64,000 bases of DNA from Mobula hypostoma (GCF_963921235.1 NC_086097.1:108006001-108070000); one strand, 5' to 3'; numbered from the stretch's first letter, positions 1 to 52,218 are shown. Numbers and translations are program-made. Notes: generated by a model from the letters alone, not told the origin.

Positions 1-470
1 TCTCTCTCTCTCTCCATCAATTCAACTCGACGCAACACAAAGTGAACTGAACTGCTTAAACTTACCTGACACCGTAAGACTGATATCTACCTCCTGGACT
101 ATTATTTTTTGTATCCACACACACATTTATGGATATATATATTAAAAAAAGTTGATAACCTGTATTGTATTATTCAGTTTAATGATATTAATTCGTAGTA
201 GTAATAAATATAATCTTAATTTATAGTAAACCAGACTCCAGGTGTGTTCCATTTCTGCTGGATCTTTTCAACCCGTCACGGGGTTCGTGACAAAATTGGG
301 GCCTGCATCCGGGACAGGAACAAATTTGGTTGGAGACAATTTTCGAAATTGTGTGGGGGCTTGTCTTGATTGGGGAAATCCCTTGTAATTAATCTGTGTG
401 TGGAAAACAGCAGAAATGGAGGCTAGTGAATTTATAGAGAACCCTACTCCTCTGTTTTTGAGGACATAAT
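1..470 (+). mobile_element. Gypsy-type LTR 3' end with degenerate tRNA-Pro PBS and truncated gag start
   Basis: LTR ends ...GTGACA at 292. TGGGGCCTGCATCCGGGA (297-314) resembles PBS-Pro TGGGGGCTCGTCCGGGAT. ATG at 416 gives MEASEFIENPT. The same LTR end recurs inverted at 48175. Confidence 0.6.
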
Positions 471-807
471 AAAGGTCGGGAACCCCCGGCCAAGAGTTTA
501 CTTTGGAAGGTATGACCACATTTTTTAAAGACTGGGTTACATTAAAAATAAGTCCAGATTTCAGGAATATATAACTGGCAAAAACTGTATGATATTTTCT
601 TTTCCCTGTGTTATTAATTCAATATCTCATACAACATCCAGAATTACTCCTGTGCTGTTCCCAAGATCTGCTGAACCACGAGACTGTTGTGGCCCAGCCG
701 ACAAAATTCTCTCTCATTGTTGTAAATCCTCTTTTGATCATCCAGGCAAAATAAAACATTTCATTCTGTCTAAGCTTGTACATGTGGATGGATCTAAAAT
801 ATCTCAC

Positions 808-982
808 CTTGAGGCTGAAGCAATGCTCCTTCTCTCTGGAGAGATGCATAATTTAGGAATGGTGGAATCACGACAATTAGAAGAAGGTACTTTAAAACTG
901 AGGTAAGGCGAGAACAGATTCTCAAGAATGAAAATGAATCTGCATTGGTTTCTGTAGAACAACCTCGTGGTGTATTGGTTTT
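808..982 (-). CDS. Internal coding exon (175 bp) of the same gene: KTNTPRGCSTETNADSFSFLRICSRLTSVLKYLLLIVVIPPFLNYASLQREGALLQPQ(G)
   Basis: Strong acceptor (ttgtctctttcttctccAG) and donor (AAG|GTGAGA), open frame, and a hydrophobic TM-like stretch. The motif LLIVVIPPFLNYASLQREG matches, from memory, the N-terminus of the fish uncharacterised hydrolase family (zebrafish si:dkey-122a22.2-like); no database check was possible. Confidence 0.8.
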
Positions 983-1555
983 CTGGAGAAGAAAGAGACA
1001 AGTAAACAAAATGATGGCAAAACAATATTTGATGCAGGACAAATTACCATATCAAATTGTGCACATACCAGCAGTAATAAAATTAAATTAAATGCATTAG
1101 GAGTACGAACACATTGCTTTATCTCCCCTCTATCCAGTCTTCCACTGCTTGTCAGTGAAGCACTTACACAAAGCAAGCTGAATAGGAATTGAAATCTTCC
1201 TGCAGGGATTCATTATTAAAATATTGAACCAAACTTACTGGCCATATTATCCCTGGCTACAATTTTCAATATTCCTCCTTGAAGTAGTCTGGTAGTTTTT
1301 ATTACAATAATGAAATCATAAAAGGCCATGAACTAAAAGAAAGCAGAATAAGCTTGAGGAGCTGAAAACATTGGAATTGTTTTCACACTAATAGTTCATG
1401 TTTACAACTACTTTCTTTACTTAAGTAGTATAAATCCAAGTTTATTGTCATTCAACCATACAGATGTATACAGCTAAACAAAATGTCATTCCACTGAGGC
1501 CGAGCTGCAAAACACAACAGATATAGTTACATTCTAGCAAAATAACATGTCCCTG

Positions 1556-2090
1556 AGACAACAAGATGTAGGAGCAGAATTAGGCTATTGGCCCATCAAG
1601 TCTACTCCACCATTTCATCATGGCTCATCAATTATTCCTCTCAACCCCAATCCCCATATCCCTTCAAGCCCTGACAAATCAAGAACCTCTGCTTTAAATA
1701 TACCAATAACTGTCATCCACAGATACTTGTGGCAAAGAATTCCACAGATTCAACACTGTCTGGGAAAGAAATTCCTCCTCATCTCCATTCTAAAAGGACA
1801 CCCCTCTATTCTGAGGCTGTGTCCTCTGTTCTTAGACTCTCTCACCATAGGAAACATCCTCTCCACATCCTTTCTATCAAGACCTTTCACCATTTGATAG
1901 GTTTCAATTAGGTCACCCCTCATTCTTCTGAATTCCAGTGAATGCAGGCCCACAGCCATCAAAAACTCTTCATGTGAAAAACCGTTCAATCCTGGAATCA
2001 TTTTTACGAACCTCCTTTGAACCCTCTCCAATGTCAGTACATCCGTTTTAAGTAAGGGGCCCAAAAATACTCACACACCAAGTGAGGGCT
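1556..2090 (-). mobile_element. CR1 LINE 3' fragment
   Basis: LERVQRRFVKMIPGL...SLEFRRMRGDLIETYQ...FFPRQ, the CR1 ORF2 C-terminus, plus 3' UTR. Confidence 0.85.
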
Positions 2091-2459
2091 CACAAGGTCT
2101 GAAGATTGACAGGTAAACATAAAGTATAAAGTGCATGTTTATGTAAGAAAGCATAATGTTACTGGCATTATTATAGATAAAACAAGCAGTCATATAAATA
2201 TGTGAAACACAGCAATAAAAGGTGAAAAATGGCCAGTGCAAAATGAGAGTGTGTTTGTGAGTTGGGGAGCAGGGTGGGGAGGAAACAGAAACTTTGGAAA
2301 GAAAAATCAGGCAGGGACACTGCCCATTTACAGCTACATTACACCCTGACTTGTCAGTGTTTCATTTTTGTTTACTGGAAAGTGTGTGTACAATCTTCCT
2401 CAACGTGACTTCTTCAACCTAAGTTGATGACTGTGTTTCAAGGATCAATTCTGCATTAA

Positions 2460-2810
2460 AAAGTCAGTTTACTGTCATATGCACTAGTGCAATGAAAACC
2501 AGCAAATGGTTGAAAGGACGTAACTGTTCCTGAATCTGGTGTTGTGGGGCTTTAGGTCCTACCCGACGGTAGCTGCGAAAAGATGGCATGGGATCTTTGA
2601 TGAATGATGTTGGTTTCTTCAAGCAGCGTCTCCTTTCGATTACTGATGTTGGGGAGGGATGAGGCCGTGATGGGCAGAGTCCACTGCTCTCTGCGGGTTC
2701 TTACGTTCCTACAGATTCAAAGTGCCATAACAGACAATGATGCAACCAGTCAGGGTACGTTCTACAGTGTTTCTGTAAAAATCCATTCAAGTGTTCAATG
2801 ACAAACCAAA
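2460..2810 (-). mobile_element. Degraded Rex1/Babar 3' fragment
   Basis: Reverse complement has accagattcaggaacagttac (TRFRNSY motif), as in other Rex1 copies in the window. Confidence 0.5.
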
Positions 2811-2979
2811 ACTCATTAACCTCGGGTTAATGAGCAGGTGTTTAGTGCCATTTGCCTGTGTTTGACCGGTCTCTCTCTCTCTCCCCCCCCACCCCACGCG
2901 TTCGCTGCTGTCAGAGGAGGGTGCCTGCATTTGACTCGTCTCCCTCTCCCTCTCATTTGATGCTGCCGCAGGAACGGTA

Positions 2980-3670
2980 GAGTGGTGGGTGTGTACCAGG
3001 CACTGCCAGCAGTGGTGGTAGAAGCACCTAGATTAGGGATATTTAAGACGCTCTTAGATAGGCACATGGATGATAGAAGGAAGGGAAGGGGTAGATTGGT
3101 GTTAGAGTAGGTTAAAAGGCTGGCACAATATCATGAGCTGAGCTGTACTGTTCTATATTCTGAAGAACACCAATATAACACACATTAATGTGCTGTTGAT
3201 GGCATTGGATGAAAAGGAAATATTGGCACAAGTGCTGGGGGAACTCTCCAGCGTTTTATTGAAACATTTTATAGCCACCTTATACAGTTATAAAATAACA
3301 TTACCCCTAGGGAGAGTTGTAGAACAGAGACTTAGGGGTACAAATATATAGCTCAAGGGGTGCAAACACATAGTTCCCTGAAAGTGACAAAACATTTAGT
3401 CAGGGTGAAGAAAGTATACTGTCTTTGCTAAGGTAGTGAAGTTTCAAACTAAAGGGCACAGGTTAAGGTCAGAGAAGGAAAGTTTAAAGGGAAATTGAAG
3501 AGCAAGTTTTTTCCATACAGTGTATGAACATGCATTGTATGAACATATGTGAAATGAACTGCTAATGAAATTGGCAAAGACAGGTACAATTACAACATTG
3601 AAAAGACATTTGGTCAGGTACATAGGTAGGAAGGATTTAGAGGGATATGGGCAAAGCACAGGTGAAGGGG
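2980..3670 (+). mobile_element. Two degraded CR1 3' fragments
   Basis: CR1 3'-end motifs (tttaagacgctcttagataggcacatgg; agggcacaggttaagg; ttcc..cagagtg-like) with unrelated sequence between them. Confidence 0.55.
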
Positions 3671-3689
3671 ATCACCTCAGTGCATTTAC

Positions 3690-4318
3690 TAGCTCAGTAC
3701 TTTTTGAGTAATATTGTAAATATATTGTTTGATGAATCATTCTTTGTTTACAATTCATTACAGGTTATACGCAAGAAGTATGTGAACGGCATTCATAATT
3801 ACGCCAACACATCATATGCGAGTGCCACACTAAAAGAAAAAACTAAGTAGACATGTTTTTCAGGCTCTCGTGTCTTTCTTTCAATCAGCTTCTGGAGTTA
3901 CAGAACATAACAAGGGCAACAAGGAAGTTTTAAAATGAACCCGAGATGACTATCTATCTGCTGAAGTGCAGCATGTTTTTTCTTTGCAAGGCAAGAGAGA
4001 CATTTGAGTTTAAAAAAAAGAACAGCATGTTTCTTCAGAAGGGGAGAGAGACTTTCGAGTTTTGAAAAAAGGCAGTTAGTACTGAATGCTAACAATAATA
4101 AATTTTAAAAAAGCAGAAATGACTGGCTACGTTGGAAAGACAGACACATTCGATTGCACAACAGATAACAGGATGATGCATACTGAACGAACTGAGCAGT
4201 ATTTTGAAGCAAATTATATAACTAATGAAAAGTGAGTGCTAGAGTTACTGACTGCAATAGGTCAAAACGCATACAGTTTGTTTAGAAGTCTGAATATTCC
4301 AACCAAACCAGCTGAAAT
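3690..4318 (+). mobile_element. Gypsy LTR (3690-3911) plus decayed gag N-terminus
   Basis: LTR ends ...ACATAACA; related LTR pieces at ~8410-8559 and ~55360-55612. ATG at 4119 gives MTGYVGKTDTFDCTTDNRMMHTERTEQYFEANYI...AYSLFRSLNIPTKPAE, a Gypsy gag N-terminus. Confidence 0.7.
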
Positions 4319-4795
4319 CCCACATCCCACAGATATGGGAATTCGGGACACCTGACTGTCTCCCTGGTGACTACATCTGCAGGAAGTGCACCCAACTTCA
4401 ATGCCTGACTGACTGGGTCAAGGAGTTAAGAGCTAAAGTTGGATGTACTCAGGATAATTCAGGAGGCTGAAGCTATTATAGATGAGACTTTTGAAGAGGT
4501 GGTCACACCCAGAGTACTGGCTTCGGACAGCAGATGGGTAACTACCAGGAAAGGTAAGAGGATTAAGTCATCAGTGCAGGGTTTCCCCTGTGACTATTCC
4601 CCTCAGCAATAAATATATCCCTTTGAATACTGTTGTGGGGGGGCGGGGGGAAATGACCCATCAGATCACTGCAGCAGTCATCAGGCTGTTAACACTGTGA
4701 ACAACAGGAATTCTGCAGATGCTGGAAATTCAAGCAACACACATCAAAGTTGCTGGTGAACGCAGCAGGCCAGGCAGCATCTCTAGGAAGAGGTG

Positions 4796-4833
4796 CAGTC
4801 GACGTTTCAGGCCGAGACCCTTCGTCAGGACTA
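4796..4833 (-). ncRNA. Minimal type I hammerhead ribozyme (PLE-associated), intact core
   Basis: UAGUC-CUGACGA-AGGGUCUCGGCCU-GAAA-CGUC-GACUG. Stem I UAGUC/GACUG, conserved CUGANGA and GAAA boxes, palindromic ACGU stem III, GUC cleavage triplet. Confidence 0.75.
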
Positions 4834-6977
4834 ACTGAAGGAAGAGTGAGTAAGGGATTTGAAAGTTGGAGGGGGAGGGGGAGATCCAAAATGATAGGAG
4901 AAGACAGGAGGGGGAGGGATGGAGCCAAGAGCTGGACAGGTGATTGGCAAAAGGGGATACGAGAGGATCATGGGACAGGAGGTCCAGGAAGAAAGATGGG
5001 GGGGGTACCCAGATGACGGGCAAGAGGTATACTCAGAGGGACAGAGGGAGAAAAAGGAGAGTGAGAGAAAGAATGTGTGTATAAAAATAAGTAACAGATG
5101 GGGTACGAGGGGGAGGTGGGACCTTAGCGGAAGTTAGAGAAGTCATATGTTCATGCCATCAGGTTGGAGGCTACCCAGACGGAATATAAGGTGTTGTTCC
5201 TCCAACCTGAGTGTAGCTTCATCTTTACAGTAGAGGAGGCCGTAGATAGACATGTCAGAATGGGAATGGGATGTGGAATTAAAATGTGTGGCCACTGGGA
5301 GATCCTGCTTTCTCTGGCGGACAGAGCGTAGATGTTCAGCAAAGCGGTCTCCCAGTCTGCGTCGGGTCTCGCCAATATATACAAGGCCACATCGGGAGCA
5401 CCGGACACAGTATATCACCCGAGCCGACTCTGCTCCGTCTAGCGGAATTAGTCCTTACTCTTAATAATTTCTCCTTTGGCTCCTCCCACTTCCTCCAAAC
5501 TAAAGGTGTAGCTATGGGCACCCGTATGGGTCCTAGCTATGCCTGCCTTTTTGTTGGGTTTGTGGAACAATCTATGTTCCGTGCCTATTCTGGTATCTGT
5601 CCCCCACTTTTCCTTCGCTACATCGACGACTGCATTGGCGCTGCTTCCTGCATGCATGCAGAACTCGTTGACTTTATTAATTTTGCCTCCAACTTTCACC
5701 CTGCCCTCAAGTTTACCTGGTCCATTTCCGACACCTCCCTCCCCTTTCTAGATCTTTCTGTCTCTGTCTCTGGAGACAGCTTATCCACTGATATCTACTA
5801 TAAGCCTACTGACTCTCACAGCTATCTGGACTATTCCTCTTCTCACCCTGTCTCTTGCAAAAACGCCATCCCCTTCTCGCAATTCCTCCGTCTCCGCCGC
5901 ATCTGCTCTCAGGATGAGGCTTTTCATTCTAGGACGAGGGAGGTGTCTTCCTTTTTTAAAGAAAGGGGCTTCCTTTCTTCCACTATCAACTCTGCTCTTA
6001 AACGCATCTCCCCCATTTCACGCACATCTGCTCTCACTCCATCCTCCCGCCACCCCAATAGGAATAGGGTTCCCCTGGTCCTCACCTACCACCCCACCAG
6101 CCTCCAGGTCCAACATATTATTCTCCATAACTTCCGCCAGCTCCAACGGGATCCCACCACTAAGCACATCTTTCCTCCTCTCTCTGCATTCCGCAGGGAT
6201 CGCTCCCTACGCGACTCCCTTGTCCATTCGTCCCCCCCATCCCTCCCCACTGATCTCCCTCCTGGCACTTATCCGTGTAAGCGGAACAAGTGCTACACAT
6301 GCCCTTACACTTCCTCCCTTACCACCATTCAGGGCACCAAACAGTCCTTCCAGGTGAGGCAACACTTCACCTGTGAGTCGGCTGGGGTGATATACTGCGT
6401 CTGGTGCTCCCGATGTGGCCTTGTATATATTGGCGAGACCCGACGCAGACGGGGAGATCGCTTTGCTGAACATCTACGCTCTGTCCGCCAGAGAAAGCAG
6501 GATCTCCCAGTGGCCACACATTTTAATTCCACATCCCATTCCCATTCTGACATGTCTATCCACGGCCTCCTCTACTGTAAAGATGAAGCCACACTCAGGT
6601 TGGAGGAACAACACCTTATATTCCATCTGGGTAGCCTCCAACCTGATGGCATGAACATCGACTTCTCTAACTTCCGCTAAGGCCCCACCTCCCCCTCGTA
6701 CCCCATCTGTTACTTATTTTTATGCACACATTCTTTCTCTCACTCTCCTTTTTCTCCCTCTGTCCCTCTGAATATACCTCTTGCCCATCCTCTGGGTCCC
6801 CCTCCCCCAACTTGTCTTTCTTCCCGGACCTCCTGTCCCATGATCCTCTCGTATCCCCTTTTGCCAATCACCTGTCCAGCTCTTGGCTCCATCCCTCCCC
6901 CTCCTGTCTTCTCCTATCATTTTGGATCTCCCTCTCCCCCTCCAACTTTCAAATCCCTTACTCACTCTTCCTTCAGT

Positions 6978-41852: not shown

Positions 41853-43269
41853 ATTGTAGGACTTTCCATCAGCAGAGCACATCCTTGGAATAAGGCTACC
41901 TGTACATTTGCTGATTTGCCCTTTGAGCCACTCTTTCTGCTTTGCTGCTGCATTGGGAAATGTCTTGTGCACTGTTCCTCTGTTTTCACAGTGTTCACTG
42001 TTGTGTCTGCCCTGTGCAGCTCATTAGCCTGAGATTGTGTGATCTCCATGCCCTGCTCACCTTCACAGCCTTTTCCAGGCATCAAATCTTTCTGACACAG
42101 CAATCTTTGTCTGAGCCCATTATCTGGAATTTCGCAAACTATTCTGTCTCTAACTAGTGAGTATCTCAAATCTCTAAACTCACAGGACTTAGTATGTGAA
42201 GCTCATCTAAGTATTGGTCAAAGTTAACACCTTGTTTCTGGTCACAGGAAAAGAACTTATACCTTTTAAACTTGATGTTTTAACTTGGGACAAAATACTC
42301 CTCAAATTTGGTCACCGGAGTGTCCAATATAAAGGCTGTCTCATCAATTTGAAAGCTGTTGTAGATATCCAAAGCATCTTCGTCAATCACATGCAGAAAG
42401 GTGGACACTTTCAACTTTTCATCAGTTCCTCCCGCCACCCCCAGCTCTGGTAGCAGGTCAATATATATTAAATCACTGTTTGAAGCATTTCCAGGTATTT
42501 ATTAGATTGCCAGGTGAGGGATGACTTAGGTTGTCCATGATGGGAACTCTTGGCCTCTCACCTGAATTTCTTGGTGAATTCATTGAACTTCAGGACACAG
42601 ATATTCTGGCCAGCACCATCTCTCCATTGCTAGCATCTCTTTTTCAGTCACACACAGTTCTCATGTACTGTTCGTGTTTAGACCTCATGCCAACTTCCAA
42701 CACCAGGCTATATTTGTTGTTAAAAAAGACATACTTATTCTGGCTAAATGCTAGAACATTTTATTACTGAACTCTGTTCAACACTTAGCGCATGTGACCC
42801 GCCTACTATCGAAGCATCCGGTTCCGGGTGAACTGCCCATGTTGCACACTGGGAACTGAAGTTCTTTATTATGCACACATAATAACACAGATGAGTCAGG
42901 ACCAGGGGGCACAGCTTCGTACTAGGGCAGGTGTTTCCAAACTTTTCTATGCCATAGACCCCTACCATTAACTGAGGGGACCACAGACCCTAGGTTGGGA
43001 ACCACTGCAATAGAGGAACATCCATTTAGAACAGAGATGAGGAGGAATTTCTTTAGCCAAAGGGCAATGAAATCAGTTCTGTTCATTGCCATAGATGGTT
43101 GTGGAGACTAGGTCACTGGGTATATTTAAAACGGAGGTTGATAGTTTTTTGATTAGTCATGGTATCAGAGGTTACAGAGAGAAGGCAGAAGAATGGGGTT
43201 GAGACATAACAAATGAGTCATGATGGAATGGCAGAGAACACTTGGGAGCAAAGGATGTTGGGGATGGCA

Positions 43270-46109
43270 AGGTGGAGCACTGTGGGAGAGTTGTGGGTCA
43301 TGTGGCAGCAAAGGAGTTCCAGGGACGGGAGGGTGGCGCAGGTGCAGAGACAGCTCCCCAGTCATCATAGACTAACCTTTACTACTGAGCAGGTGAGAAG
43401 GGCTCTGGGGAAACTCAGACATGGCAAAGCATTGGGACTGGATGGTGTGAACCCCAAGGTCCTGAAGGAGTGTGCTGAGCAGCTGTGTGGAGTTCCCCAG
43501 TGTACTTTTAATCTGAGTCTCAGCCTGGAAAGGGTCCTGACTGTGTGGAAAACATCATGTGTGGTCCCAGTACCCAAGGAAGGACAACTGAATATCTTAA
43601 ATGTCTACTGTCCAGTGGCCCTGACCTCACACATCATGAAGACCATAGAAAGGCTGATCTTGGCTCACTTCCAACTCCTGGTCAGATCAGCCCTTGATCC
43701 CCTGCAGTTTGCCTATCAGGAGCACATTGGAGTCGATGATGCTGTCATCTACCTGCTGAACAGAGCCTACTCCCATTTGGATAAGCAGGACAGCACTGTG
43801 AGGATCATGTTTTCTGATTTCTCAAGTGCCTTCAATACCATACAGCCCTCATTGCTGGGGGAAAAGCTCCACTCTATGCAGTTTGGCACTTCCATTGTAT
43901 CCTGGATAATGGACTACCTGACTGACAGACCACAGTTTGTGCGGCTTCAGAGCTGTGTGTCAGACATGGCTATAAGCAGCACTGGGGCCCACAGGGGACT
44001 GTATTGGCTCCCTTCCTGTTTACCCTTTGTACCCCAGACTTTAGATACAACACTAAGTCATGTCATCTGCAGAAATTCTCTGATGACAGCCACGGTTGGG
44101 TGTATAAAGCAGGGGTCCCCAACCTTTTGTGCACTGCAGACTGGTTTAATATTGACAATATTCTTGCAGACCCGCCAACCGGGGGGGGGGTGGTGGTGGG
44201 GTAGGGTTGCCAATGGACAAGAGTAGCAGTCAAATACGTTGTGTTTACCCCGAGAAAGACTACCATGACCATGAAGCCTTGCGCAGGCACCAGTGTAGGC
44301 ATGCGTGTACGTGCCAATTTTTTTCTACAAATCATTTTTGACAATTCTGTTCGGGGGGGTGGGGGTTTGTTAATCACGACCAGAATATAGGTGATAAGTG
44401 GCTAATACCCTCAATTTTGTTTCTAAAAGGGTTTATCTAACAAATTTAGTATTAAACACACAGCGCATATTTTCCTCGCATGAATATAGTGATAAGTCAA
44501 TTATCAGGGAGCTTGAAGTAAGTGTTGAACGAACTTCCAGTAGAAGTGGTAGAGGCAGGTTCGATACTATCATTTAAAGAAAAATTGGATAGGTATATGG
44601 ACAGGAAAGGAATGAGGGTTATGGGCTGAGTGCAGGTCGGTGGGACTAGTGAGCGTAGCATTTGGCATGGACTAGAAGGGCAGAGATGGCCTGTTTCTGT
44701 GCTGTAATTGTTATATGGTTATATAAGTCACTTATAAGTCAATAGCATCATAACATTTTAAGTAACGTTTGGATATTAAACACACAGCACATATTTTCCC
44801 CATATGAACATATAAAATCATTGCAACACACCAATATCGCTGAATCAGTGGGAGCCCTGGGCTTGTTTCCCTGCAACAAGACGGTGCCATCGAGGGGTGA
44901 TGGGAGACAGCGATACTCGAACGGGGTTCCCTATGTCCAGTCTATTGAGCAATTTAGTTTTCGTTGCAATTATTGCAGAAATATGTTGGAAATGGAAGCA
45001 ACGTTTTCAGTGCTTTCGTGGCTGTCTTAGGACATTCAGCCTTGACTTTGATCCAGAATGCTGACAGAGATGTTATATCAAACATACTCTTCAGCCCGCC
45101 GTCATTTGCAAGCTCCAGGAGTTGATCTCCTTCCCACGCTGCCACGGATGACGCGTGGGTAATGACCTTGCATGCGTTCAAGCTCAACAGTGGGCGTGAC
45201 AGGGAATGAGGAAAGGTGCAGCTGACTCATATCGCCAAATCATATCGTTTCCTCGTGGCCCGGTAGCACATGCTTTGCGGCCCAGTGGTTGGGGACCGCT
45301 GGTATAAAGAGAGGACGGGAAGATGAATACAGGGCCCTGGTGGAGGACTTTGCCAAATACTGGAAGCTGAATCATCTGCAGCTCAACATCAGGAAGTCGA
45401 AGGAGATGGTGATGGACTTTAGGAGCCTGAACTGCTCCCTGTTACTGTTGATGGTGAGAACATGGATGTGGTGAGGATCTACAAGTACCTGGGGTGCTCC
45501 TGGATGCCAAACCTGAGTTGTGCACCAACACAGAGGCTGTGTACAAGAAGGGCCAGAGTCACGTCTACTTTCTGAGGAGCCTGAGGTCCTTTGGAGTATG
45601 CAGTCCTCTCCTTCACATGCTCGACCGGTCTGTTGTGAACAGTACAATCTTCTATGTGGTGGTATGCTGGGGCAATAGCATCAACATGGGTGATGCCAAC
45701 AGGCTCAATAAACTGATTAGAAAGGCTGGCTCTGTTATAGGAGTCATACTGGACACACTGGGGCTCTGGTGGAACAAAGGGCCCTACAGAAAATCCTGGC
45801 AATTCTGGACAATGTTTCTCACACTCAGCATGCCACATTAGCTGAACAGAGGAGCACTTTTAGTCATAAATTAAGACAGCTGCGCTGCTCCAAAGAGGGC
45901 TACATGAGGTCATTCTTATCCTCGGCCATTAGGCTCCACAATAAGTCAACCTATGGCCGGGGAAGCGATGAGTCCCCTCCTGTTAGACTCTTTTAGGTAA
46001 CTTAATTTTTATTCTTTCTGCTTCTCTTCTAATATTTATATCTGTGCACTTGTAATGCTACTGTAAAACTGTAATTTCCTTTGGGATCAATAAAGTATCT
46101 ATCTATCTA
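43270..46109 (+). mobile_element. Rex1/Babar LINE, 5'-truncated, split by a hAT element
   Basis: GLDGVNPKVLKECAEQL, PVALTSHIMK, DPLQFAY, DFSSAFNTIQP, KFSDD, KKGQSHVYFLRSLRSF and an (ATCT)n tail. Confidence 0.88.
44110..45301 (-). mobile_element. Non-autonomous hAT (Charlie/Buster-type) element carrying a CR1 3' tail
   Basis: CAGGGGTCCCC...GGGGACCGCTG TIRs and a perfect 8-bp TSD GTATAAAG (44102-44109 / 45302-45309). Transposase C-terminal remnant QLLELANDGGLK...FWIKVKAE...ALKTLLPFPTY. Confidence 0.88.
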
Positions 46110-46400: not shown

Positions 46401-47348
46401 TATATATACCTAGAAGTAAAAGAAGAGTCATGCTGGTTCGGATGTTGCCTGGATTAACAAGGTCCCCGCCAATGGTTGGGAATCTGGGACTATTTGGTGA
46501 TAAATTGGCTACCGGAACAATGGACAAGACTGGACGAGATGGAATTAATGGAATGCTACTTTAACAGCAACCCACGTGAAAGAGGAGACATCAAGCACAT
46601 GTGGGGACTCTGGCAACAATGAAGTCCATCGTCCACATTCACAGGAAAACAACTGGCTACCCTGTGATCAAACATTGCCAACAGAGGATTGCTATCACAT
46701 CTTGAAATGGAAGATGTACAATCACAATGCACCACAGCAACATCATCACAGAACTGAGCCGATCAGGAAATACAATTTCAAGTCCTACTCCACAACTCAC
46801 AGATGGCGCAAAGGTAATAAACGTTGTGCACAGGAACTGCAAGTTGGAACCTCTCCTCAGGGCATATCGACACTGGCTGCTGCAATCAGAGAGAATATCA
46901 TGGCTAAACTGGCCATTTTAGCCATGATATTCCCTCTGATTGCAGACTTAGTGATGAAACTCCAACAGACAGCATGCTGGAAGCAGCTAATGAAGCTCTA
47001 CTCACAATTGCAACCTCCAACATAACTGAGACCAATTACCTGATATATGCATCGGAAACAGCAGTCCTAAAAATGCTGGGCCACAAAATGAAATACAGTG
47101 GAGAATACTGTCATAACCCCCCCCCCCAACCCTGGAGACAACGATTGGAAGCCAAGATGAAAACCACAAGGGTGGAGGTCAGCAGACTAAATGAGCTGCA
47201 GAAAGGTAGGAAGACCAAGGACTCATAGTGGCTACTAAGGAAATACAGAGGAATGCCCATAGCTGAAGCCAGCAGTAGTTAACAGTTCTGGCTACCAGAC
47301 GACAGAGGTACACTAAGGGTACAGAGGCCAAGTGAATACATGCACTCT

Positions 47349-47889: not shown

Positions 47890-48374
47890 TTCTCCAAAGA
47901 ACCAGGAAAAGTATTCGCACAACTTCAGAGCAACAGCTTGCTAATATCTGAACCAACCAGAAAAGCAACTGAGGAGCACTGGAAGACTATATAGGAGAAA
48001 GCAGCATCACACAACACCAGTGCCCAATGGTGGAAAGGTCTACAAGCAAGCCGCTGCACTCTTCCAGAGAAAGAGCCAGTCACCATCACAGCAGGAGATA
48101 TCCAGCAACAGGGAGCAAGTATAAAGAACTGGACATCACCAGGGCCTGACGTGATCCACGTTTATTGGCTGAAAAGTCACGTACCCCATGATGGGTTAAA
48201 GAACCAGCAGAAATAGAAAACACTTTGGAGTCCAGTATTGCTACTAATTAATGGTATTTATTAGTAGCTACGCAATACAGTAATATAAATACATATATAT
48301 GAAAAAGGGTAGCATTGAATATATATTTATGATTGAAATATATGAAAACCAAGCTTCTTCAAGTCTAGGGGTAG

Positions 48375-51300
48375 CTGTGTACATACATCTACTGATGCCT
48401 CTGGACACATCTTCAGTGATGCTCCTGGAATCATTGGGTGTTTCGGGTCTTTCAACATCAAACACCCTCCTCCAGGTGACCCAGCCGGGGCTGATCAGAC
48501 CCCAGTTTGTGTCCAGATGGCTAGCTATTTATGACTCCCCTCTTTTGAGCCACAGCCACCTTGAAGCCCTCTCTGCCGCATTGGTGGTACTGCGGATGAC
48601 TCTCCTCTTCCTCTCTCCCTCGATGCCCAAATTGCTGAAGGCTCTAACTAAGGAACGGGCTGAGAATCCCCTACAACCAGCCTCCGCTGGGAGACACCTC
48701 GCTCTCCATTCAGCCTGCTGACAGTTGCTGACCAGTCCTGTGTACTTGGAGAGCTTCCTTTCAAAGGCCCCTTCCAAGCGATCTTCCCATGGGACTGTCA
48801 GCTCCTGCAGTACCACTTGCTTAGTTGACTCAGACACTAGGACAATGTCTGGTCGTAGGGTGGTGGCTGCGATATGGTTGGGGAACTTCAGCTGCCATTC
48901 AAGGTCCACCAACAGCTGCCTGTCCCTTGCAGAGGTCAGAATGCCTGCAGATGTTCTTTTGGCAGGTATTGGCTGCTCCCCAGCTCTGACAAAGGCAATG
49001 GTCTGCTTGGAGGGTCGGGACCGCTTCACCCACTGAACTCCTGCGCTGATGGCTTCAGCGATGGTCTTCAGGACCTGATCATGCCTCCACCTGTATTGTC
49101 CCTCACCAAGTGCCCTTGCACAGCCGCAGAGGATGTGCTCCAGGGTTCCTCACTTTGAGCACGGTGGGCACGCAGGTGACTCTGCCTTGCCCCATGTGTA
49201 CAGGTTTGATGGGCTTGGAAGCACATCATACACTGCCTGGATGAGAATTTGGATGTGGTGTGGTTCGGCTTTCCAAAGATCAGCCCAGGTCACTTACCTC
49301 TCAACCGCATTCTCCCATCTTGTCCAAGCTCCCTGTTGCTTCATTCCCACCGCCTTGCAGGCTCTCATCTCCTCCACTACTGCTCTCACCTCCTCCTGAA
49401 CTAGACGACGCCTTTCCTTCCCTCTGGTGTCCATTTGGGGAGTTGGAAAAGATCCTAGCCCAGCTCGGCCTCGTGTGACCACTCCCACCAGCCTCCTGTC
49501 ACGCAGCCTCGCCTCTGCCTCCTGAACAGCTTCCTCTGCCCTCCACTTCCTGCCATCCTCACTTGGATCCCTGCTCTAGCCACCTTCGGGTCACTTGAGT
49601 CCCTATACTGTAGCACTTCTCTGGCTCTTATTACCTTGAATTCTTCCTCCAAGGATTTGAAGGGCAGTTGCAGTTTGTTGTGGTGTCCATAGAGTGCGAT
49701 GCTGCTCAGGCTCTTTGGCAGCCCCAGCCATCTCCTGAGTTGGTTGCTAACCCTCCTCTCTAAGTTTCGACTGTCGAGATTGGAACTGCATAGACAAGGA
49801 GGGGCCACAGGATTCCGGGAAGAATGCCATGCTGATACATCCAGGCTTTAAACTTCCCAGGTAGGCCAGACTTGTCCACAGATTTCAGCCAGCCATCCAA
49901 CTCGGTACAGGTTGCCTGAGTGGATGTCGTGTCCCTTAAAGAGCTGTCAAAAACTTTGCCTAAGCTCTTGACTAGTTTTTCTGTGATGGTTGGGACATCT
50001 GTGCCTGCGATGCTGAACCGGAACTTGTTCTCCACCTTCCCTTTCCTCAGCACCATCGATCTTGACTTGGTTGGTTTGAAACACATCCGGGCCCACTCCA
50101 CCGGCTTTTCGAGCCCTTGCAGAATCCTCCGGCAGCCTGGGACTGATTCTGTGGTGACTGTGAGGTCATCCATGAATGCCCTGATAGGTGGTTGCCGTTG
50201 AGCGGAATTCATTCTGGGCCCTCTGGACTCTGGTTCAGCAGACTTAGTGAGCATGTTCATGGCTAGAGAGAACAATGTCACTGAGATACTGCACCCTGTG
50301 ATGATGCCAATCTCCACCTTGTGCCAGGTTGATGAAGAGACCCTCATCCTGAATTTGCTGTAATAATCTGCGATAAGCTCTCTGATTCTGCTGGGGACGT
50401 GATATTTGGTCAGTGTGAGCTGCACCAGCTTGTGCGGAATGGAGCCATATGCATTTGCCAGGTCGAGCCACAACACTGACAGGTTGCCCTTGTTCTCTCT
50501 GGCTTCCCTGATGAGCTGTGTCACCACACCGATGTGCTCCAGACAGCCTGGCATCCCTGAAATGCCACCCTTCTGGACTGATGTATCAATATAGGTGTTC
50601 TTTGCTAGGTAGGTGCACAGCCGGTTAGAAACGGCACTGAAGAAGATCCTTGCCTCAACACACAGCAGGGAGATGATGCGAAACTGATCTATCTGGGTGG
50701 CATTTTCCTCCTTCGAGATCCACACCCCTTTAGCCACTCTCCACTGTTCTGGGATCTTCCCCCTTCTCCAGAAGATTCTCAGGATCTTCCACAGATGCAG
50801 CAGGGGTTTGGGGCAGTTCTTGTACACTTTGTACGAGGTGCTGCTTGGTCCTGGAGCCGAGCTTGCCCTTGCTTTGCGGACGACCTCTCTGACTTCCTTT
50901 AGTTGCAGCTCTGACATGTCGAACTGCACATCTGGTTCAGGTGGGTCTATTGCAGGTGGATGCTTTCCTGGTGTCATGGATTCTTGATTACCTGACTGGC
51001 AGACCACAGTACGTGTGCTTGTAACACTGTGTGTCCGACCGAGTGATCAGCAGCACTGGGGCTCCACAGGGGACTACCTTGTCTCCCTTTTTCTTCAGCA
51101 TTTACACCTCGGACTTCAACTACTGCACAGAGTCTTGTCATCTTCACAAGTTTTCTGATGACTCTGCCATAGTTGGATGCATCAGCAAGGGAGATGAGGC
51201 TGAGTACAGGGCTACGGTAGGAAACTTTGTCACATGGTGTGAGCAGAATTATCTGCAGCTTAATGTGAAAAAGATTAAGGAGCTGGTGGTAGACCTGAGG

Positions 51301-52218
51301 AAAGCTAAGGTACCGGTGACCCCTGTTTCCATCCAGGGGGTCAGTGTGGACATGGTGGAGGATTACAAATACCTAGGGATACGAATTGACAATAAACTGG
51401 ACTGGTCAAAGAACACTGAGGCTGTCTACAAGAAGGGTCAGAGCCGTCTCTATTTCCTGAGGAGACTGAGGTCCTTTAACATCTGCCGGACGATGCTGAG
51501 GATGTTCTACGAGTCTGTGGTGGCCAGTGCTATCATGTTTGCTGTTGTGTGCTGGGGCAGCAGGCTGAGGGTAGCAGACACCAACAGGATCAACAAACCC
51601 ATTCGTAAGGCCGGTGATGTTGTGGGGATGGAACTGAACTCTCTGACGGTGGTGTCCGAAAAGAGGATGCTATCCAAGTTGCACGCCATCTTGGACAATG
51701 TCTCCCATCCACTACATAATGTATTGGTTGGGCACAGGAGTTCATTCAGCCAGAGACTCATTCCACCAAGATGCAACACAGAGCGTCATAGGAAGTCATT
51801 CCTCCCTGTGGCAATCAAATTTTACAACTCCTCCCTTGGAGGGTCAGACACCCTGAGCCAGTAGGCTGGTCCTGGACTTATTTCCTGGCATAATTTACAT
51901 ATTACTATTTAACTATTTACGGTTCTATTAATATTTAATTATTTATGGTGCAACTGTAACGAAAACCAATTTCCCCCGGGATCAATAAAGTATGACTATG
52001 ACTATGACTATTAGGATGTCGCACTCTCCCAACTCCTGCTCTCTTTCAGGATCATTATATACCTTCTTCAGATGTTGGTCTATGTCTTCCTGTGAACAGG
52101 CCAGTTTCCCACTGCGCTTCTCCCCCAGCAACTCCTTGGTGAACTTGAAGGGGTTGGCGATAAAGGCAGCACGTTTTCGAGCCCTTTCATGACACCGTCT
52201 CCGATGCCACAGATTCCA
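48375..52218 (-). mobile_element. HERO-clade non-LTR retrotransposon (RT plus restriction-like endonuclease), 5'-truncated
   Basis: SAPGPS, QFRIISLL, WLDLANAYGSIPH, GIITGCSIS, FMDD; RLE motif LRPDIVLVS...ELTVPWEDRLE.AFERKLSKY...EAGCRGF...WLWLKR. Confidence 0.88.
50952..52007 (+). mobile_element. Young Rex1/Babar 3' part nested in HERO
   Basis: Open 277-aa ORF GAPQGTTLSPFFF..YT, KFSDD, KYLGI; AATAAA plus a (CTATGA)n tail; CTATT duplicated at both ends. Confidence 0.9.

Follow-up and report, generated by a model that had tools for sequence, protein, structure and literature searches.

The HERO copy and its 3' untranslated region

The stretch analysed here (the window) comprises 64,000 nucleotides (nt) of Mobula hypostoma DNA (GCF_963921235.1, NC_086097.1:108006001-108070000), with positions counted from its first letter, and carries on its minus strand a copy of HERO, a retrotransposon without long terminal repeats (non-LTR), or long interspersed nuclear element (LINE), whose 3' untranslated region (UTR) holds a structured RNA that is read below as a rearranged, kink-turn-braced hammerhead ribozyme. 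The reading frame of the copy, which spans 52210-48376 and is 5'-truncated, has breaks, and a second LINE on the plus strand splits the copy at about 50950-52008. Individual related HERO loci are labelled L001, L003 and so on. The parts of the copy are:

48374-50950, minus strand: 3' part of the HERO non-LTR retrotransposon (reverse transcriptase (RT), CCHC finger, restriction-like endonuclease, 3' UTR), decayed, with frame breaks
52008-52210, minus strand: 5'-most surviving piece of the same copy (blastn and tblastn against L001)
48374-48399, minus strand: hairpin at the terminus and an A/C-rich tail reaching the element 3' end (48376-48374)

The 3' end was placed from related contigs, in which the empty-site break falls at 48373/48374; it is embedded in an older repeat (48200-48373). 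Most tails in the family end in UGUA or UGUU followed by an A/C-rich stretch (window 48387-48376), a candidate signal for RT initiation or 3' processing. L001, a near full-length relative with an 1118-amino-acid open reading frame (ORF), was 86% identical in DNA over 50950-48376, and the window pieces matched its frame at 84-86%. RVT_1 was matched in the window copy (E 1.6e-18) and zf-RVT (PF13966) in homologues, a motif RPD...ELTVPWE...RK was conserved, and the closest named protein came from a ray (86%). About 127 of 190 RT residues (~67%) were identical to HERO-2_DR, counted by eye in the alignment of supplementary file 6 of PMC5678591, where the R2, NeSL, Utopia, CRE and Dong rows were visibly much less similar. 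By this by-eye comparison, made in place of a tree with named references, the element is a member of the HERO clade, as a sequence-only reading of the same DNA had proposed, and its pieces correspond to the single ORF with RT, CCHC finger and restriction-like endonuclease that marks HERO elements.

The structured RNA lies 27-130 nt past the ORF stop codon (48531-48529) on the minus strand. The sequence-only reading had described 48503-48400 of this strand, which is present letter for letter, as a kink-turn (k-turn) with a pseudoknot and flanking hairpins; it missed the hammerhead core, a second pseudoknot (stem I) and the enclosing helix (P1). The copy is decayed and truncated, yet its hammerhead core is, letter by letter, intact. 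The features are given from 5' to 3' in hammerhead numbering, with core positions named by their established catalytic roles:

48508-48517, minus strand: P1 5' strand, outside the interval described earlier; 10/10 pairs with 48409-48400
48483-48507, minus strand: P2 hairpin, directly after the P1 5' strand and ending directly before 10.1; the mismatch at 48506 is private to the window copy
48478-48482, minus strand: stem II strand 10.1-10.5, the upstream pseudoknot strand, pairing with 48449-48445
48470-48476, minus strand: P3 5' strand, which is the k-turn non-canonical (NC) stem; 3n is G48470
48468-48469, minus strand: k-turn 2n (G) and 1n (A)
48462-48467, minus strand: stem III 16.x strand, which is the k-turn canonical (C) stem; U16.1 is 48462
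48460-48461, minus strand: H17 (U48461) and predicted cleavage at 48461/48460, sited by hammerhead analogy
48455-48460, minus strand: stem I 1.x strand, the second pseudoknot
48450-48454, minus strand: linker between the distal ends of stems I and II, short and variable in the family; the link is shared with type-SGC hammerheads
48445-48449, minus strand: stem II strand 11.5-11.1
48441-48444, minus strand: catalytic core G12-A13-A14-A15.1, used as an anchor
48436-48440, minus strand: stem III strand 15.2-15.6
48431-48435, minus strand: k-turn bulge L1-L3 (AAU) and 1b-2b (GA)
48424-48430, minus strand: P3 3' strand; 3b is U48430
48417-48422, minus strand: stem I 2.x strand; a difference from close relatives at 48422 gives a U.G end pair
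48410-48416, minus strand: catalytic core C3-U4-G5-A6-N7-G8-A9
48400-48409, minus strand: P1 3' strand, from A9+1

Relatives, alignment and controls

Relatives were fetched by a 70-protein alignment of the endonuclease region, so that selection was by protein similarity only and blind to the UTR. This gave 84 loci, 79 from metagenomes (best 80 of 335) and 5 from genome assemblies, to which the window copy was added; 4 of the 84 were without the C-terminus, leaving 81 sequences that reach it. Twelve loci with less than 200 nt of downstream sequence were dropped. Seven were without an anchor match: L009 is truncated, L042 and L074 have deletions, L021 and L053 have G12->A, L079 has the motif farther downstream (recovered in the full-core test) and in L067 no motif was seen. 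L008 and L012 were excluded, with G12 changed and the pattern matched elsewhere, and removal of 14 near-duplicates at 85% left the 46 non-redundant sequences to which counts below refer unless another number is given. The anchors, GAAA and YUGANGA, were selected with the data already in view; GAAA with YUGANGA 15-45 nt behind it was present downstream of the ORF in 62/81 loci, compared with 5/81 in coding and 0/81 in reverse-strand controls. The cleavage site was placed by stem III pairing alone. Controls for the full-core test were 120 viral stretches carrying both anchors, from a scan of 3/64 parts of the collection; the viral contigs searched held no HERO protein relatives. Covariation was measured with our own R-scape-like G statistic with average product correction, against a null of 60 simulations on the tree of ORF DNA. 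A search with 4227 Rfam covariance models returned nothing at the locus with E up to 10, and no gathering-level match in 9 related HERO loci. L082, L083 and L084 are eukaryotic HERO elements in bacterial genome assemblies, likely through host contamination of bins; for G001, only two 3'-UTR copies were obtained.

Evidence for a hammerhead core

U16.1 was found in 45/46 sequences and G16.2 in 43/46. H17 was U in 18, C in 15, A in 12 and G in 1, hence not G in 45/46, and L011, the sole G17 case, reads NUC if 16.1 is set 2 nt further 3'. The downstream core was CUGAUGA in 27, CUGACGA in 9, CUGAAGA in 5, CUGAGGA in 4 and UUGAAGA in 1; only N7 varies in 45/46, and one sequence has U3. G12, A13 and A15.1 were invariant in the MAFFT alignment, GAAA itself being one of the anchors, and 11.1 was C in 40/46 and U in 6. 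C3-G8 is conserved with few change events, namely U3-A8 in L030, which retains every stem, and U3.G8 in the L019/L025 lineage; U3-A8 is a natural, active compensatory form of the hammerhead (PMC3088659), and the core consensus is stated in PMC10085705. G12->A in four copies and U11.1 in seven would be in keeping with CpG decay in old insertions.

The four bases after H17 pair 4/4 with the four before CUGANGA in 43/46 (stem I; mean 3.87 pairs, against 2.13 in a swap control with a maximum of 2.67 in 5000). These letters, together with the catalytic CUGAAGA, had been taken for a CAUC-ACUGAA-GAUG hairpin, which did not hold up in the family (33% paired versus 32.8% shuffled). The bases before GAAA have an upstream 4/4 partner in 40/46, 19-20 nt ahead of U16.1 in 35/46; this stem II is the GGGUC/GACCC pseudoknot of the sequence-only reading, here with 91% of cells paired and two-sided changes in 4/5 pairs. 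Five of the six pairs once proposed for it are borne out, and the sixth (U.G), which uses G12 and the P2-closing base, is probably unformed. A canonical stem II directly after CUGANGA was ruled out: across the 46 sequences, the bases before GAAA never paired 4/4 with those following CUGANGA (mean 1.67/4 pairs). Twister, pistol and hepatitis delta virus (HDV)-like folds were also considered and were set aside when the hammerhead core proved to fit.

In a MAFFT alignment made from sequence only, 86% of the cells of a 22-pair model were paired, versus 59% in shuffled and 34-49% in slid alignments, with 261 two-sided changes. When the 3081 column pairs were ranked by the tree-aware G-test, the first 12 places all went to model pairs (stems I, II and P3). 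Ten model pairs (four of the five in stem II, four in stem I and two in P3) had values above the null maximum's 95th percentile. The comparison of HERO 3' UTRs suggested earlier returned a conserved, covarying structure. Stem III, conserved and partly misaligned, was below significance in this test. The full-core test was passed by 37/46 HERO sequences and by 0/120 anchor-matched viral stretches, none of which fitted either the HERO topology or canonical SGC.

A chance match or alignment artefact might be suspected from the post hoc choice of anchors and from the folding energy of the isolated 104-nt piece, which is unremarkable (z -1.91, 8/200 shuffles equally good); with the enclosing helix (48531-48370), z was -3.83 (1/200 shuffles). 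The absence of any passing control and covariation above the tree-aware null in an alignment made from sequence only already effectively refute this explanation. On these comparisons, the HERO 3' UTR holds a complete hammerhead catalytic core as judged by consensus, covering CUGANGA, GAAA, U16.1-A15.1 and the NUH triplet.

Two relatives stand apart. L084 (1155-1260), the most divergent at 30% protein identity, has S, G and C blocks, and an upstream partner for stem II is not clearly seen. Three pairs could form directly after its CUGAUGA, and it is perhaps an ordinary type-SGC hammerhead or else a decayed form. In L067 (1145-1560), a HERO-like ORF is followed by a 5'-UTR match with no ribozyme detectable between them.

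Rewired topology and the P1/P2 junction

The strand order shown by the predicted pairings is P1(5')-P2-stem II(10.x)-P3-k-turn-stem III(16.x)-UH17-stem I(1.x)-linker, then stem II(11.x)-GAAA-stem III(15.x)-k-turn-P3-stem I(2.x)-CUGANGA-P1(3'). A9 is thus not adjacent to 10.1: the stem II partner is upstream in 40/46 sequences, and P1 and P2 intervene, P2 being the GGGG/CCCC hairpin that had been recognized earlier. P1 had a mean longest run of 9.0 bp across the family, versus 5.4 in a swap control (n=45), and the junction arrangement, with P1 starting at A9+1 and P2 ending at 10.1-1, was found in 32/45 sequences versus 9/120 controls; in 31 of these 32, P1 abuts P2 with zero unpaired bases.

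Eckert 2023 divided hammerheads into blocks S, G and C, assuming that no more than 1-2 nt can come between CUGAnGA and its stem II strand; natural type-SGC hammerheads were validated there by cleavage, and stem III and the I-II helix are noted to have distal ends that lie far apart in the crystal structure (PMC10085705). In the HERO RNA, P1 stacked on P2 would bring their exit points together, so that A9 and G10.1 can stack as usual. Stacking of P1 on P2 very probably keeps these two bases neighbours in the manner of a four-way junction, with the k-turn folding the extension of stem III back and tying the distal ends of stems I and II. That the overall fold is a topological variant of the hammerhead in HERO 3' UTRs is held with equally high confidence.

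The kink-turn

A strict k-turn (3-nt bulge, 1b.1n G.A, 2b.2n A.G, C and NC stems) was present in the window and in 34/46 relatives, which bears out the AAU bulge, tandem G.A/A.G pairs and flanking stems described before; other bulge lengths gave 0-5/46 and anchor-matched viral stretches 1/120. The C stem had 5-6 bp in 33 of the 34. The last two pairs (UU/AA) of the inner stem as first drawn were possible in only 2/46; they are nearly private to the window copy and may compete with the active fold.

The 3b.3n pair of the 34 strict k-turns was A.G in 13, C.U in 6, U.G in 4, C.C in 3, C-G in 2, U.U in 2, C.A in 2, A.C in 1 and A-U in 1, with the U4-type G-C or G.U in 0/34; in this pair the family is riboswitch-like and unlike U4, to which it had been compared. 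K-turns with 3n=G or 3b=C belong to a class that folds in Mg2+ without protein, and U4 is biased to G-C/G.U (PMC4382518). By this rule, Mg2+ alone should suffice for folding of 28/34, as it does for SAM-I but not for U4. The k-turn was absent or imperfect in 12/46 sequences, several of which keep the core; other bulges replace it in L043/L070/L083 and in L045/L049/L076, most of which also retain the core. Since it is lost in sub-lineages that keep the core, the k-turn would be a brace rather than the conserved purpose of the RNA, and a natural way to bridge the distant ends of stem III and the I-II helix.

Both observations bear on the purpose first suggested for the structure, a non-catalytic RT-recognition element whose k-turn recruits Snu13/15.5K (L7Ae family), with the hammerhead letters a fossil or a protein-binding surface. 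Conservation of the k-turn and the binding of R2 3' UTRs to their own RT (PMC13580325) speak for such an element. It leaves unexplained why position 17 is H and not G, why N7 is free and why U3 and A8 covary; hammerhead rules persist at endonuclease-region identities as low as 34-45% to the query; and the riboswitch-like 3b.3n spectrum, with 28/34 in the ion-folding class, and loss of the k-turn where the core is kept also speak against it. We regard it as very unlikely as the purpose of the structure, though L7Ae-family proteins or the RT may still bind.

Predicted cleavage and tandem arrangement

Judged by its core, the HERO RNA probably cleaves itself. The reading preferred here is that the rearranged, k-turn-braced hammerhead likely does so at 48461/48460 and cuts HERO transcripts to unit length, to which we give a probability of roughly three in four. 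The predicted cut lies 85 nt before the element 3' end, inside the copied sequence. Stem I was in register directly after H17 in 54/60 copies (the rest being substitutions or misplacement in L011 and L014), and no insertion scar was seen at the predicted cut in the 60 copies; the template therefore seems covalently continuous there. After the cut, 28 bp would link the products (P1 10, II 5, P3 7, III 6).

In one alternative, the pieces stay paired by the 28 bp as a nicked clasp, the RT jumps the nick and the cut uncouples the tail from the coding RNA. The topology, which holds the products together, and the template jumping of R2-type RTs are in its favour. Such jumps often add untemplated bases, and the 60 copies without a scar at the cut make this course improbable.

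A conserved 5'-UTR repeat was found within 400 nt after the ribozyme in 14/50 loci, with the next HERO ORF visible in 11. Conversely, 20/23 plus-strand 5'-UTR matches had a ribozyme within 450 nt upstream, and of 7 matches lying upstream of the matched ORF, 6 were preceded by 3'-UTR sequence. Several contigs of ~3.8 kb had terminal overlaps, and the overlaps other than that in L039 were 90-98% identical. This suggests that HERO units often stand head to tail and that their unit RNA may resemble that of Penelope-like elements and retrozymes. One contig (L010:1-90) starts 1 nt after the predicted cut of an upstream ribozyme; it is 1 of 6 such contigs and a weak hint. Among the contig matches listed for the window, none had a loose end at 48460/48461; contigs of this kind cannot reveal RNA ends, and the point weighs on neither side. 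The HERO 5' UTR (L003:118-225 and 15 other loci) has 3-4 tandem hairpin repeats of ~20 nt, in which the UGAC spacers are conserved and the loops rich in GAA, 11/20 predicted pairs showing two-sided changes; this second structured RNA, a candidate for translation entry or protein binding, is absent from the truncated window copy.

From the likeness to Penelope-like elements and retrozymes, the following course is favoured. Head-to-tail copies would be transcribed through and each ribozyme would cut once; the two ends of a unit would re-form the ribozyme through the 28 bp and then be sealed into a circle, RNA ends being open to ligation by hammerheads or by RtcB. Target-primed reverse transcription would begin internally, with the RT starting at the tail 85 nt 3' of the cut; the ribozyme would in this way be intact in each insertion, and tandems would arise from copies that exceed one unit. 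Cutting, resealing and internal priming form the most likely single role model, although we hold it only tentatively. Somewhat more doubtful is the claim in full, that HERO replicates through ribozyme-made circular RNA, with an undescribed four-strand hammerhead cutting tandems, clasping and resealing the ends, and an R2-like RT/endonuclease priming internally.

Several observations weigh against these readings. As to the ribozyme itself, in the window copy H17=U and 1.1=U permit a competing two-pair extension of stem III (-46.0 vs -42.7 kcal/mol, nested part), and helices that split A9 from 10.1 have no precedent in the main text of Eckert 2023 (PMC10085705). As to the circle model, runs of ~11-12 A at the ends of L083 and L086 point to a template that is linear and polyadenylated; the two units in the L039 tandem (85-6888) are only 68% identical and may be a mixed tandem or an assembly chimera; and the 5' UTR of L032 sits behind an unrelated flank. 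The 28-bp clasp would make strand exchange between copies kinetically hard. Cleavage by the anole Penelope hammerhead was dispensable for insertion in vitro, with no RNA-seq ends at the cut (PMC11167929). The assemblies that show the tandems are of short reads, with repeats collapsed, and the examples used to train the 5'-UTR profile lay downstream of ribozymes (ascertainment bias).

The A-tails of L083 and L086 and the non-identical units of L039 would be expected if the ribozyme served only to process 5' ends, as the R2 HDV-like ribozyme does: the upstream tandem copy would free the downstream unit and may aid cap-independent translation, while the unit's own 3' ribozyme is held uncut by bound HERO protein and the linear 3' end is the template. 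In Penelope, hammerhead activity is protein-dependent and the template uncut (PMC11167929), and ribozymes can aid translation (PMC13725137). Processing of 5' ends alone needs one ribozyme copy on and the other off within one RNA; most 3' ends were seen without poly(A); and L046/L047 pass from the 3' end straight into the following 5' start without intervening bases. Taken by itself this model is rather unlikely, and it is nearly as good as cutting, resealing and internal priming.

Other repeats in the window

The insertion at 50950-52008 is a plus-strand LINE fragment (matches to RVT_1 and PF09004) opposite to the HERO ORF, which we take to be Rex1/Babar-like; similar fragments lie at 43210-44226 and 45458-45841. 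A long near-perfect inverted repeat at 46870-46956 stayed below the gathering thresholds of several microRNA models and is probably transposon-derived.

Comparison with known systems

The proposal that the HERO 3' UTR ribozyme is a new topological variant of the hammerhead is strongly supported by the sequence comparisons above. No earlier description of a HERO hammerhead or of a topology split between A9 and 10.1 was found in the literature searched, in agreement with the earlier impression that the structure was undescribed for HERO elements; subscription papers, Repbase notes and the supplements of Eckert 2023 may hold one. The main text of Eckert 2023 has no mention of kink-turns or HERO (PMC10085705). 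Hammerhead variants with additional helices are mentioned, citing Eckert and Forgia 2023, in PMC13725137, and the accessible portion of Forgia 2023 has nothing that matches the HERO topology. HERO is named only as a clade in the available parts of PMC13580325 and PMC7650587.

The accepted scheme of six hammerhead permutations takes CUGAnGA as inseparable from stem II, an assumption that the HERO family breaks, and the ribozyme occurs widely in a LINE clade that includes vertebrate members, yet goes undetected by Rfam. A cut inside the region to be copied conflicts with standard LINE priming at a linear 3' end and points to circular or protein-gated RNA; likely self-cutting would change the view of how HERO elements copy themselves. 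If the circular model were true, an autonomous LINE with a restriction-like endonuclease would have an RNA cycle like that of retrozymes and viroids, and a hammerhead core could be split between A9 and stem II. R2-like elements are under development for genome insertion, where definition of the template end by HERO would be of practical value, and a ribozyme with clasped products could serve RNA circularization.

The nearest relative in form is the type-SGC hammerhead (HRIMA-1; PMC10085705), which shares the order of cleavage site, GAAA and CUGAnGA, the short linker joining stems I and II and an extra helix tying their other ends. In SGC the stem II strand directly follows CUGAnGA, whereas in HERO it lies 5' of everything and is bridged by P1/P2, and the HERO tying helix continues stem III through the k-turn; SGC came from metatranscriptomes. 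With a block C that is without its stem II strand, the HERO ribozyme was not filed as type SGC. With standard k-turns (Kt-7, SAM-I riboswitch, U4 snRNA) the HERO k-turn shares the 3-nt bulge, G.A/A.G pairs and C and NC stems, and its 3b.3n spectrum is like that of SAM-I and Kt-7 (A.G commonest), unlike U4; no natural hammerhead with a k-turn was found in the literature searched.

Penelope-like elements and non-LTR retrozymes likewise have a hammerhead in a tandemly arranged retroelement. Theirs belong to type I, are often minimal and occur in GIY-YIG elements or in repeats that are non-autonomous, whereas HERO is a LINE with a restriction-like endonuclease and a large pseudoknotted fold. Tandem Penelope-like elements carry hammerheads, with internal RT initiation shown for one Penelope (PMC11167929), and retrozymes form circles (bioRxiv 10.64898/2026.07.22.740005). 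R2 shares with HERO a structured 3' UTR in a LINE of the restriction-like-endonuclease class, its own being RT-binding, and the 5' HDV-like ribozymes of R2 and other LINEs share the processing of a LINE from a longer transcript by a self-cleaving RNA, in HERO a predicted one. The HERO ribozyme differs from these in its class and in its place, in the 3' UTR and 85 nt inside the inserted 3' end, so that its cut would fall within the copied sequence.

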